DNA of 64,000 nucleotides. Source: Escherichia coli (GTDB lineage Bacteria; Pseudomonadota; Gammaproteobacteria; Enterobacterales; Enterobacteriaceae). The notes beneath the pieces were generated by a model. That model did no database searches, was not told the DNA's origin, and was given only the letters and a program-made list of their open reading frames with translations. The DNA is taken from assembly GCF_044647545.1 (NCBI RefSeq), contig NZ_CP172818.1, one strand, 5' to 3'. Below, piece after piece: positions 49,225 through 54,626 of this stretch; position 1 is the first letter of the stretch, and every line of letters begins with the position of its first letter. A program made the position numbers and the translations under genes.

Positions 49225-50472
<1,248 letters not shown>

Positions 50473-50475
50473 CTA

Positions 50476-50497
50476 AAACATAGCCTTTGCTATGTTT
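50476..50497. promoter_or_regulatory. MntR operator palindrome upstream of mntH
   Basis: AAACATAGCCTTTGCTATGTTT, perfect 9-bp arms, matching the MntR box as I recall it. Confidence 0.6.
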
Positions 50498-50513
50498 CAT
50501 GCTATGTCAAACG

Positions 50514-50532
50514 AGAATGATTATCAAATTCA
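50514..50532. promoter_or_regulatory. Candidate Fur box upstream of mntH
   Basis: GAGAATGATTATCAAATTC resembles the GATAATGATAATCATTATC Fur consensus. Confidence 0.45.
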
Positions 50533-50798
50533 TTTAAGTGGATTGTGATGATTTCTTTGATAGACCAGAATTATGACGACGAAAAGATTGATGACTTGAA
50601 TGTTGTGATTATGTTTAATGTTAGCACATTTACATAACTTTCAGCTTCCATACACAACATAGCAGAAATGTATGACAGCTCACTATTTTTGAAGCTTGTC
50701 ACAGGACGTCATTATAGTGTGTGTCAGATCTCGTTTTCCTTAACCATGTTACATAGAATGTGCACGGAAATTTAACCTGCCTCATATTTGGAGCAAAT

Positions 50799-52001
50799 AT
50801 GGACCGCGTCCTTCATTTTGTACTGGCACTTGCCGTTGTTGCGATTCTCGCACTGCTGGTAAGCAGCGACCGCAAAAAAATTCGTATCCGTTATGTTATT
50901 CAACTGCTTGTTATCGAAGTGTTACTGGCGTGGTTCTTCCTGAACTCCGACGTTGGTTTGGGCTTCGTGAAAGGCTTCTCCGAAATGTTTGAGAAACTGC
51001 TCGGATTTGCCAACGAAGGGACTAACTTCGTCTTTGGTAGCATGAATGATCAAGGCCTGGCATTCTTCTTCCTGAAAGTGCTGTGCCCAATCGTCTTTAT
51101 CTCTGCGCTGATCGGTATTCTCCAGCACATTCGCGTGCTGCCAGTGATTATCCGCGCAATTGGTTTCCTGCTCTCCAAAGTCAACGGTATGGGCAAACTG
51201 GAATCCTTTAACGCCGTCAGCTCTCTGATTCTGGGTCAGTCTGAAAACTTTATTGCCTATAAAGATATCCTCGGCAAAATCTCCCGCAATCGTATGTACA
51301 CCATGGCAGCCACGGCGATGTCCACCGTGTCGATGTCCATCGTTGGTGCATACATGACCATGCTGGAGCCGAAATACGTCGTTGCGGCGCTGGTACTGAA
51401 CATGTTCAGCACCTTTATCGTGCTGTCGCTGATCAACCCTTACCGTGTTGATGCCAGTGAAGAAAATATTCAGATGTCCAACCTGCACGAAGGTCAGAGC
51501 TTCTTCGAAATGCTGGGTGAATACATTCTGGCAGGTTTCAAAGTTGCCATTATCGTTGCCGCAATGCTGATCGGCTTTATCGCCCTGATCGCCGCGCTGA
51601 ACGCACTGTTTGCCACCGTGACTGGCTGGTTTGGCTACAGCATCTCCTTCCAGGGCATCCTGGGCTACATCTTCTATCCGATTGCATGGGTGATGGGTGT
51701 TCCTTCCAGTGAAGCACTGCAAGTGGGCAGTATCATGGCGACCAAACTGGTTTCCAACGAGTTCGTTGCGATGATGGATCTGCAGAAAATTGCTTCCACG
51801 CTCTCTCCGCGTGCTGAAGGCATCATCTCTGTGTTCCTGGTTTCCTTCGCTAACTTCTCATCAATCGGGATTATCGCAGGTGCAGTTAAAGGCCTGAATG
51901 AAGAGCAAGGTAACGTGGTTTCTCGCTTCGGTCTGAAACTGGTTTACGGCTCTACCCTGGTGAGTGTGCTGTCTGCGTCAATCGCAGCACTGGTGCTGTA
52001 A
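50799..52001 (+). CDS. nupC: Nucleoside:H+ symporter NupC (CNT family)
   Basis: ORF 50760-52001; start chosen at MDRVLHF (400 aa). Confidence 0.9.
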
Positions 52002-52038
52002 GACCATACAGGGATAATTCCCCGGTTTTTTACGCCTG

Positions 52039-54228
52039 TTAATCAGCTAATGGCTGCGGGCGACCAATCAAATACCCTTGCAGATATTGCACCCCGAGCT
52101 TATGCAATAGCGCCTGCTGCTGTTGCGTCTCGACAAACTCAGCGACCACACTCAATGACTTCGCTTTCGCCAGATCGGTAATTGATCTCACAATCATCGC
52201 ATCCAGCGTATTCGTGACGATATCTTTCACAAAGACGCCATCAATTTTGATGATATCAGCCTGCAAACGTTTTAACCGTTCGTAGTTGGCATAGCCGGTG
52301 CCAAAGTCATCAATCGCAATCCGGAAACCAAACTTATGCAGTTGCTCGATGTTGTACATGCTGCTTTCTGCGTTAGAAAACGCCTGCTCCTCGGTGATCT
52401 CAAGAATGACCGCCTGCGGGGAGATGTGATAACGCTTAAACAGACGAATAATCCGCCCGGCAATATTCTTTTGCAGCAGCGTGAGCGGCATTAAATTGAC
52501 TGAAAAGCGCGGGCCTTTTTTGTCGCAAGGATGTGTTGCCAGCCACTTCAACAGGGATTCCAGCACTTGCAAATCAAAACGCGCGCTAAGGTTAAACTGA
52601 GCAATAAGGGGCAGAAACTTATCCGGGGTCATAATGCCGCCGTCATATTTCAGTCGCGCGAGGATCTCATCATAACCTTCACCCTCTTTGTTGCGAATTG
52701 GCTGGGCGTAGAGCAGCAAATCACCCTGATCTAACGCCGTACGAATGGTATTCAGCAATAGCACCTGTTTAGTGGTCTGCCCGGAAACCATCTCCTCTCT
52801 GCTATCCAGCGCCAGCACATGGTGATGTGCGCAGGATTGCTCCGCCAGCCAGCTTAACTGCCCCAACAAGGGTTGCAGGGTTTCCTGATTTCCATCAAAA
52901 CGCCCCCAGGCAGCACCATAGCCCATATCCAGCCCGGTATTGTTCCAGTGAATTTGCCGACTATTCAGGATGTTAACCATATGCTGGAGTCGCCCTTCCG
53001 TTTCCGGCCCGCTCAGCACTAACAGCAGTTCACTACCCGGCAATTGATACAACTTTTCGTTTTCCTGCATCAACGGCAGCAGCGTACGGTAAATTGAGCG
53101 GATACAGTGAACGCGCATCATTAAGCCGTAATGACGACTCATAAACTCAAGATTATCAATGCGCAGGCAACAAAAACTCTTGCCCGCCTCTTGCTCCGGC
53201 GCTTGCTCCAACGCACGAAAGTTGGGTAGGAGCGTTAACGGATCGGTCAGCGCCTGCAAATGCCAGCGGCGGTTAAGCCATTCACTACGATGATAAATAC
53301 GCACCATATAGAGCAGGCAAACACTAAAGGAAATCAGTACTGCGAGAATAAATGCCAGCGAATATTCGGTTAGTACCCCTTGCAAAAAGTTCTGGTTATA
53401 ATTCAGAAGGCAAAGCGTTGAAACAGCCCAGGTGAGATTTAAAAACGGATAGCGAAGCTTACCGACACCGAGGGTAAAGATGATAAAGAAAACAGGTACC
53501 AGGTAACCGGCAATAAAGTCATTTTCATACGGTGTGCACATCAGAAGTAGCAGCACGCTAAGAGCTGCCAGCCAGCTTAAGGTAAATGCGCGTTTCTCTT
53601 TGCTCAACGACGGAGCGATATCCCTGCGCCACAATATCTGTGCAAAGTGGGGACTTACAATCATGCGGGTGAGATAGTAAAAAAGCATGTTGTAAATCAG
53701 CACTGCGGTGAAAAGGCTTAGCAAATCAACGACCGTGAAAATGGCATCCGCATCGCCGAAAAAGGTGGATATCTTTAGCGGGAAATCAAAAAAGCTCCCC
53801 ACAAGATACATGCTGCATTTGATGCCGATCGGCGTCACCAAACCAAGCCAGAAAAGACGTTGCCAGACATATCGGCTGGTCAATCCATATCGCCAACGCG
53901 TCCCCAGCTGCCAGCGTAATATTGCGCAGGCACACAACACAACAAACGTCTGGCTGCCGAGCATGACCGCGGTCTGTAAAAAAGAGAGATGAAAGTTCCA
54001 CAGATTGGTGCAAAACATCCCGCATAAAATGGGAACGACACCGCGCCAGCCAAAGATAAACAAGATTGACAGCATTACGCACAGTGGCATCCACGCCAGA
54101 AAGATATAACTGGAATGGATAACAGCAAGTGGCGAAATAAAACGGGATAGCTGAATAAGTACCACGGTGAGCGTAAACGCTAGTGTGAATATCTTGATAT
54201 TTTTTATCAGGTTATGCTCCACAAACAT
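52039..54228 (-). CDS. pdeA: Membrane c-di-GMP phosphodiesterase YfeA/PdeA (MASE1 + degenerate GGDEF + EAL)
   Basis: ORF 52039-54402; start chosen at MFVEHNLIK (729 aa); C-terminal EAL domain. Confidence 0.85.
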   Translation of the reverse strand: MFVEHNLIKNIKIFTLAFTLTVVLIQLSRFISPLAVIHSSYIFLAWMPLCVMLSILFIFGWRGVVPILCGMFCTNLWNFHLSFLQTAVMLGSQTFVVLCACAILRWQLGTRWRYGLTSRYVWQRLFWLGLVTPIGIKCSMYLVGSFFDFPLKISTFFGDADAIFTVVDLLSLFTAVLIYNMLFYYLTRMIVSPHFAQILWRRDIAPSLSKEKRAFTLSWLAALSVLLLLMCTPYENDFIAGYLVPVFFIIFTLGVGKLRYPFLNLTWAVSTLCLLNYNQNFLQGVLTEYSLAFILAVLISFSVCLLYMVRIYHRSEWLNRRWHLQALTDPLTLLPNFRALEQAPEQEAGKSFCCLRIDNLEFMSRHYGLMMRVHCIRSIYRTLLPLMQENEKLYQLPGSELLLVLSGPETEGRLQHMVNILNSRQIHWNNTGLDMGYGAAWGRFDGNQETLQPLLGQLSWLAEQSCAHHHVLALDSREEMVSGQTTKQVLLLNTIRTALDQGDLLLYAQPIRNKEGEGYDEILARLKYDGGIMTPDKFLPLIAQFNLSARFDLQVLESLLKWLATHPCDKKGPRFSVNLMPLTLLQKNIAGRIIRLFKRYHISPQAVILEITEEQAFSNAESSMYNIEQLHKFGFRIAIDDFGTGYANYERLKRLQADIIKIDGVFVKDIVTNTLDAMIVRSITDLAKAKSLSVVAEFVETQQQQALLHKLGVQYLQGYLIGRPQPLAD

Positions 54229-54435: not shown

Positions 54436-54511
<76 letters not shown>

Positions 54512-54550
54512 ACGAGGCGTTTACGTACCAAATTTGCTGGGTGCAAAATT

Positions 54551-54626
<76 letters not shown>

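Follow-up and report, generated by a model that had tools for sequence, protein, structure and literature searches.

The region upstream of Escherichia coli mntH reads as a composite Fur, MntR and OxyR control region overlapped by the small ORF ypeD

What are the perfect palindrome and the Fur-like box that lie directly before the manganese transporter gene mntH, and can regulatory DNA at this locus be told apart from an RNA hairpin, a small-protein coding sequence or a chance repeat? We addressed this question in a stretch of 64,000 nucleotides of an E. coli genome (contig NZ_CP172818.1; hereafter the window), in which mntH is encoded on the minus strand. A 601-nt query over the region is 100% identical to strain FDAARGOS_497 and was matched in 5424 of 5426 complete E. 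coli genomes. On the identical DNA (NZ_CP033850.1) RefSeq labels the gene "mntH: Nramp family divalent metal transporter", and mntH is also annotated in K-12 (NC_000913.3). The ATG occupies 50463..50461, with its A at 50463, and the divergent neighbour nupC starts at 50799. We are highly confident that the DNA before mntH is a composite Fur/MntR/OxyR regulatory region with a σ70 promoter and a short leader. Dual control of mntH by Fur and MntR together with activation by OxyR has been known since 2001-2002, and the window carries the standard E. coli version of it. In the direction of mntH the elements are arranged as conserved block, Fur box with the −35, −10, palindrome, Shine-Dalgarno sequence and ATG:

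50538..50574, minus strand: candidate OxyR site, ATAA-N7-CTAT-N7-ATCA-N7-CCAC, in the conserved block just upstream of the −35 hexamer
50513..50531, both strands: Fur box, a 19-mer, from consensus match, conservation and published prediction
50522..50527, minus strand: −35 hexamer TTGATA, inside the Fur box, predicted by promoter scan
50499..50504, minus strand: −10 hexamer TAGCAT, predicted by promoter scan
50476..50497, both strands: MntR operator, a 22-bp perfect 9-4-9 palindrome, from sequence, conservation and recurrence in the regulon
50470..50474, minus strand: Shine-Dalgarno sequence AGAGG, read from the sequence, 6 nt before the ATG and 1 nt after the palindrome
49225..50463, minus strand: mntH coding sequence, a 412-aa Nramp-family Mn2+/H+ importer, from the ORF list and RefSeq annotation

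The window and K-12 agree at every base of the operator, the Shine-Dalgarno sequence, the −10, the −35 and the Fur core. The only K-12 difference within the promoter and operator stretch (50464..50533) is a G→A change at 50507, in the promoter spacer, and there is no functional difference between the two mntH operators. The change creates a TTGACA, which we considered as a new −35 and rejected: no −10-like hexamer lies 16 to 18 nt downstream of it.

The first-pass annotation of this DNA had described a perfect palindrome with 9-bp arms 13 to 34 bp before the mntH start. The sequence and the ORF coordinates agree with that description. On the plus strand the palindrome reads AAACATAGCCTTTGCTATGTTT, or AAACATAGC-CTTT-GCTATGTTT, and in mntH sense it reads AAACATAGC-AAAG-GCTATGTTT. 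The two 9-nt arms are 100% complementary, are separated by a 4-nt spacer and cannot be extended, the flanking bases being G and T.

A repeat of this length could be a functionless chance occurrence, and the counts of inverted repeats taken by themselves would allow it. When repeats are counted as hairpin-type (perfect arms of at least 9 nt, loops of 4-8 nt), shuffled windows contain about 1.9 of them by chance. The window contains ten. Against a chance origin, the specific pattern of the mntH palindrome, searched with up to 3 mismatches, is expected only 0.05 times per window, and the one match found is the mntH site itself. The nine other repeats with arms of at least 9 nt are at 6817, 8364, 13230, 34768, 39690, 46182, 55609, 57730 and 62140. 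Most of them look like intrinsic terminators, being mostly G+C-rich and adjoining gene ends. Unlike most of these, the mntH palindrome is A+T-rich, has 3 G:C pairs and is located at the 5′ end of a gene.

The palindrome motif also recurs at other MntR-regulated genes. The K-12 regions of other reported MntR targets, 20 kb in total, were scanned with the mntH palindrome at up to 4 mismatches. This identified a match 46-67 nt upstream of the dps ATG (3 mismatches), two matches upstream of mntP (3 mismatches each) and one at the 5′ end of rybA/mntS (4 mismatches); no further match was present in those 20 kb, in which 0.01 would be expected by chance. All four sites share with mntH an ATAGC-N4-GCTAT core with A/T-rich flanks, and this common core bears out the earlier reading of the palindrome as an MntR-type operator. 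The two mntP sites precede their start codon by about 360-420 nt, and published work describes them as activating. None of the four sites forms a perfect palindrome or lies as near to a start codon as the mntH site does. Of 5426 complete E. coli genomes, 5421 carry the regulator gene mntR; it is located outside the 64-kb window, about 1.7 Mb away in K-12.

Two extra copies of ACATAGCA in the neighbourhood were examined as added MntR sites and rejected, because neither has an inverted partner. The copy at 50500..50507 overlaps the −10 hexamer and is Escherichia-specific, with TGATAGCA in its place in other genera. The copy at 50656..50664 coincides with an extended −10 (TGcTATGTT) of a weak upstream start that is described below.

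For the phylogenetic comparison we assembled 80 Enterobacteriaceae mntH loci (one genome per species), to which the window and K-12 were added for a set of 82 sequences. The left arm of the operator, AAACATAGC, is invariant in all 82, and the AAAG spacer is present in 81. The right arm that completes the perfect palindrome, GCTATGTTT, was found in 22 of the 82, which belong only to Escherichia, Salmonella, Citrobacter and Kluyvera; Salmonella mntH has the same perfect palindrome as the window. The remaining sequences carry GCTATATTT or forms that diverge further in the final two bases, singly or together (GCTATATCT, ATTA, ATCA); in total, no more than three positions of the right arm are variable. 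The result is a clean phylogenetic footprint in which the left half-site and spacer are held constant and the perfect palindrome belongs to a single clade. Enterobacter, Klebsiella, Buttiauxella, Kosakonia and other genera arrange Fur box/−35, −10, operator and Shine-Dalgarno sequence in the E. coli order and at the same spacing, with an identical left arm and spacer. They differ in the right arm (GCTATATTT or GCTATATCT, matching at 8/9 or 7/9 positions) and in a promoter spacer of 16 rather than 17 nt.

Conservation is equally strong for the remaining elements. The −35 hexamer TTGATA is invariant (82/82) at a promoter spacer of 16 or 17 nt. The −10 keeps TAnnnT in every sequence while its interior bases vary, giving six variants, the pattern classically seen for a −10 hexamer. 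The Fur core TTGATAATCATTC(T/G)C, which contains the −35 hexamer, is nearly invariant, and GAGGCA, which includes the Shine-Dalgarno sequence, is conserved across the set. Conservation ends some 115 nt before the mntH ATG. Within E. coli, 5237 of 5385 records agree at every base over the 36 nt that run from the Shine-Dalgarno sequence through the operator into the end of the −10; polymorphism is much higher in the 43 nt that follow upstream. A chance origin of the palindrome, with its invariant or nearly invariant parts among the 82 sequences and its identity across E. coli records, is refuted by these conservation data, and we assign it a vanishingly small probability.

Some members of the set have local rearrangements near the start codon. 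Trabulsiella odontotermitis (L030) has a tandem duplication of 16 nt (ATATTTCAGAGGCAGA twice) some 45 nt before the mntH ATG; it spans the end of the right arm and the Shine-Dalgarno sequence, which increases the distance from operator to ATG from 12 to 28 nt and leaves two Shine-Dalgarno copies. In four species (L025, L048, L070 and L075) a small indel places an upstream ORF in frame with mntH, from a distal ATG in L025 and L048 and from an operator-adjacent ATG in L070 and L075. From the reading frames, an N-terminally extended MntH would be formally possible in these four species.

The promoter scan independently chose TTGATA, a 17-nt spacer and TAGCAT, the same hexamers that the conservation picks out. 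A single base (G, 50498) separates the −10 hexamer from the palindrome. Projected from this −10, transcription would start at about 50491..50493 on the minus strand, inside the left arm of the operator, and would produce a leader of about 30 nt. The operator would then cover roughly −5 to +17 of the predicted start, which is an ordinary position for a repressor site. The first-pass annotation had regarded the MntR site as unusually close to the translation start. That part of its account did not hold up: the gap is 9-13 nt in 81 of the 82 Enterobacteriaceae sequences and therefore not an anomaly. The operator is close to the ATG because the leader is short.

Kehres and colleagues reportedly described a Fur motif over the −35 of mntH, with an inverted repeat downstream of the likely −10 and ahead of the ribosome binding site. 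The layout of the window sequence matches this placement; that the footprinted sites would be identical to those of the window rests on secondary citations. In the full texts covered, the operator sequence was found only in unrelated primer lists, and phrases on MntR binding sites gave no match.

A palindrome that ends next to a Shine-Dalgarno sequence could also function in RNA, as a hairpin in the 5′ untranslated region that controls translation or attenuates transcription. The fold itself is compatible with this, since the palindrome forms a stable RNA hairpin (−11.3 kcal/mol, z = −5.0 against shuffles) that would end 1-2 nt before AGAGG, and transcripts from upstream starts would include it. 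However, with the predicted main start inside the left arm, the main mRNA would be unable to form the stem. The sequence variation also fails to follow RNA pairing: a G→A change in the right arm breaks a C-G pair in 60 of the 82 sequences, a further T→C change is present in 13, and the invariant left arm offers no compensation. Rfam contains no match for the hairpin even at E ≤ 1, and the terminator scan called none at the palindrome. We therefore consider an RNA function highly improbable and continue to read the palindrome as an MntR operator in DNA.

The second element is the Fur box. The 19-mer reads GAGAATGATTATCAAATTC on the plus strand and GAATTTGATAATCATTCTC in mntH sense, and it agrees with the classical consensus GATAATGATAATCATTATC at 14/19 positions on the plus strand and 15/19 on the minus (mntH) strand. 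A 7-1-7 core, TGATAATcATTCTCG, lies at 50512..50526 and matches the motif TGATAATnATTATCA at 12/14 positions. The Fur-like box that had been noted beside the palindrome is thus present, although its end had been placed one base too far, at 50532 instead of 50531. It had also been said to follow the MntR site, which is correct on the plus strand only; in the direction of mntH the Fur box is upstream of the MntR site.

As a match alone, the Fur box is statistically weak, and its credibility comes from position, conservation and the literature. There is the possibility that the 19-mer is conserved as the −35 region of the promoter only and does not bind Fur. Matches of at least 15/19 to the Fur consensus are only weakly enriched in the window (2, against 0.45 expected and a maximum of 3 in shuffles), the second of them is inside a coding region, and the invariant TTGATA could account for part of the conservation. 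But at least 15 bases in a row are conserved (TTGATAATCATTCTC), well past the −35 hexamer. In addition, a published, independent information-theory model predicts a Fur cluster centred 56 nt upstream of mntH, which corresponds to window position 50519, the centre of the 7-1-7 core, and so puts the cluster exactly at the 19-mer. Fur-dependent expression of an mntH-lacZ fusion has been found (Beauchene et al. 2015), and Fur-dependent repression of mntH promoter fusions is on record. A bare −35 without Fur binding is, in our judgement, very unlikely, and the 19-mer is best described as a Fur box that contains the −35 hexamer.

Only two other Fur-like matches of similar quality are present in the window, at 61457..61475 (15/19) and 54195..54209 (12/14 to the 7-1-7 core). 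The first falls within a 254-aa ORF and the second within the 5′ end of pdeA, and as matches in coding sequence they are probably due to chance.

The third element is the block just upstream of the −35, whose conserved core in the 82-sequence footprint is CTATCAaAGaAATCA at 50549..50563. The OxyR consensus is ATAG-N7-CTAT-N7-ATAG-N7-CTAT. By motif comparison we infer that the block at 50538..50574 is a candidate OxyR site. Activation of mntH by OxyR is described in the literature and is curated in RegulonDB.

Published regulation of mntH is consistent with this arrangement. Later literature, which cites Patzer and Hantke (2001) and Kehres et al. (2002), states that mntH is repressed by Fur and by MntR. 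According to such secondary sources, these two studies also reported that MntR binds this DNA in dependence on Mn2+ and that manganese repression is lost on its mutation. The dual repression by manganese and iron that the first-pass annotation had proposed fits these reports, and it had recognised the operator sites correctly from raw sequence. The Nramp manganese importer MntH of Yersinia pestis is, according to a review, likewise repressed by metal-loaded Fur. Unlike in E. coli, MntR is reported to be absent from Y. pestis, and Fur responds to both iron and manganese there.

A simple steric model would account for the layout. The σ70 promoter (TTGATA, 17-nt spacer, TAGCAT) would produce the short-leader mRNA of about 30 nt. 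Fe2+-Fur bound to the 19-bp box that contains the −35 would exclude RNA polymerase, while a Mn2+-MntR dimer on the 22-bp palindrome over the predicted start would block open-complex formation or promoter escape. Under peroxide stress, OxyR bound at the conserved block just upstream of the −35 would activate transcription. Fur and MntR would act independently, so that each metal alone could shut off manganese import. We infer these steric details, since the transcription start that they depend on is predicted rather than mapped.

Mapped starts near mntH are available from a shallow K-12 table (Kim et al. 2012; 5-13 reads per start), which contains no start at the main mntH promoter. The cells behind this table were probably metal-replete. 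The table does record two weak starts for the mntH strand, 147 and 186 nt before the ATG, at window positions 50610 and 50649. Each is preceded by an extended −10 (TGcTAnnnT) that we read from the sequence, TGcTAACAT at 50626..50618 and TGcTATGTT at 50664..50656, and the region of these starts shows no conservation outside Escherichia. The same table has a plus-strand start at 50451, 12 nt inside the mntH coding sequence, that was assigned to nupC. Transcription from it would be antisense to the 5′ end of mntH and would cross the MntR and Fur sites; TACTCT at 50439..50444 may be the −10 of this start.

The promoter and operator are also overlapped by an annotated small gene:

50456..50533, minus strand: footprint of ypeD (b4819, 29 aa), from the MG1655 annotation

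The equivalent of the K-12 ypeD start codon is at 50533..50531, 70 nt upstream of the mntH ATG and upstream of the −35. In K-12 the frame crosses every one of the elements from Fur box and −35 through −10 and operator to the Shine-Dalgarno sequence before it enters mntH. In the window it is interrupted by a premature TGA at codon 9 (50509..50507), which is created by the G→A change at 50507, and PGAP annotates a 14-aa remnant from an internal ATG (50500..50456). The stop allele is present in 288 of 5426 complete E. coli genomes (~5%) and the K-12 allele in 3363. The more likely reading is that the window strain carries a natural ypeD nonsense allele.

There are at least two ways in which ypeD could alter the interpretation of this region. 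The first is that the region is selected mainly as YpeD coding sequence, with the palindrome incidental to it. This has support in that ypeD is annotated in MG1655, that ribosome profiling of initiating and terminating ribosomes (Ribo-RET, Ribo-Api) identified it in E. coli BL21, and that homologues in Salmonella and Citrobacter koseri were cited as evidence of function (Stringer et al.). The frame itself is poorly maintained, however. The K-12 frame extends across the operator in 22 of the 82 sequences, and 12 more cross it in a different frame; in 37 the ORF ends before the operator is reached, 9 have no ATG for it, and in 2 it is joined to mntH. In the window, too, the ORF is broken. Codon positions 1, 2 and 3 have near-equal shares of variable columns (8/20, 7/20 and 8/19), with no periodicity. 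The residues of YpeD that are conserved coincide with cis-elements: LIIIL with the Fur box and −35, KHSKGY with the MntR operator and EA with the Shine-Dalgarno sequence. Finally, with the ypeD start upstream of the −35, the main mntH mRNA would be unable to encode YpeD. We give selection on the peptide as the main constraint very little credence. As judged from the alignment, the reported conservation of ypeD probably reflects the operator and promoter and not the peptide.

The second is that ypeD is, in addition, a translated upstream ORF. Because its start is upstream of the −35, only the weak −147 and −186 transcripts could encode YpeD, and translation from these, which would terminate at the mntH start region or within it, could modulate that of mntH or could be gated by MntR or Fur acting as roadblocks. 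We consider this unlikely, and a reading of ypeD conservation as the shadow of the underlying cis-elements is the more likely of the two. The point about ypeD is only mildly new and amounts to a small correction to the literature. It does carry a caution for the annotation of small proteins, in that overlapping regulatory DNA accounts for the conservation that was used to support ypeD.

The surroundings of the mntH-nupC region provided several minor observations. A mapped nupC start at 50766 (plus strand) is 33 nt upstream of the nupC ATG (50799) and is preceded by TAGAAT at 50754..50759, which we read from the sequence as the nupC −10. A simple promoter scan chose TTGAAG/18/TATAGT further upstream (50689..50718), which is probably not the main nupC promoter. 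In K-12 (NC_000913.3, 2514273..2515617) an IS186C element (insL3) is inserted between nupC and pdeA/yfeA; the window lacks this insertion at 52001..52039, and pdeA directly follows nupC. Two tRNA clusters are present in the window, at 54439..54626 (minus strand) and 57327..57721 (plus strand). One is a pair with equal scores that adjoins pdeA, and the other is a run of four tRNAs, three of which have an identical score.
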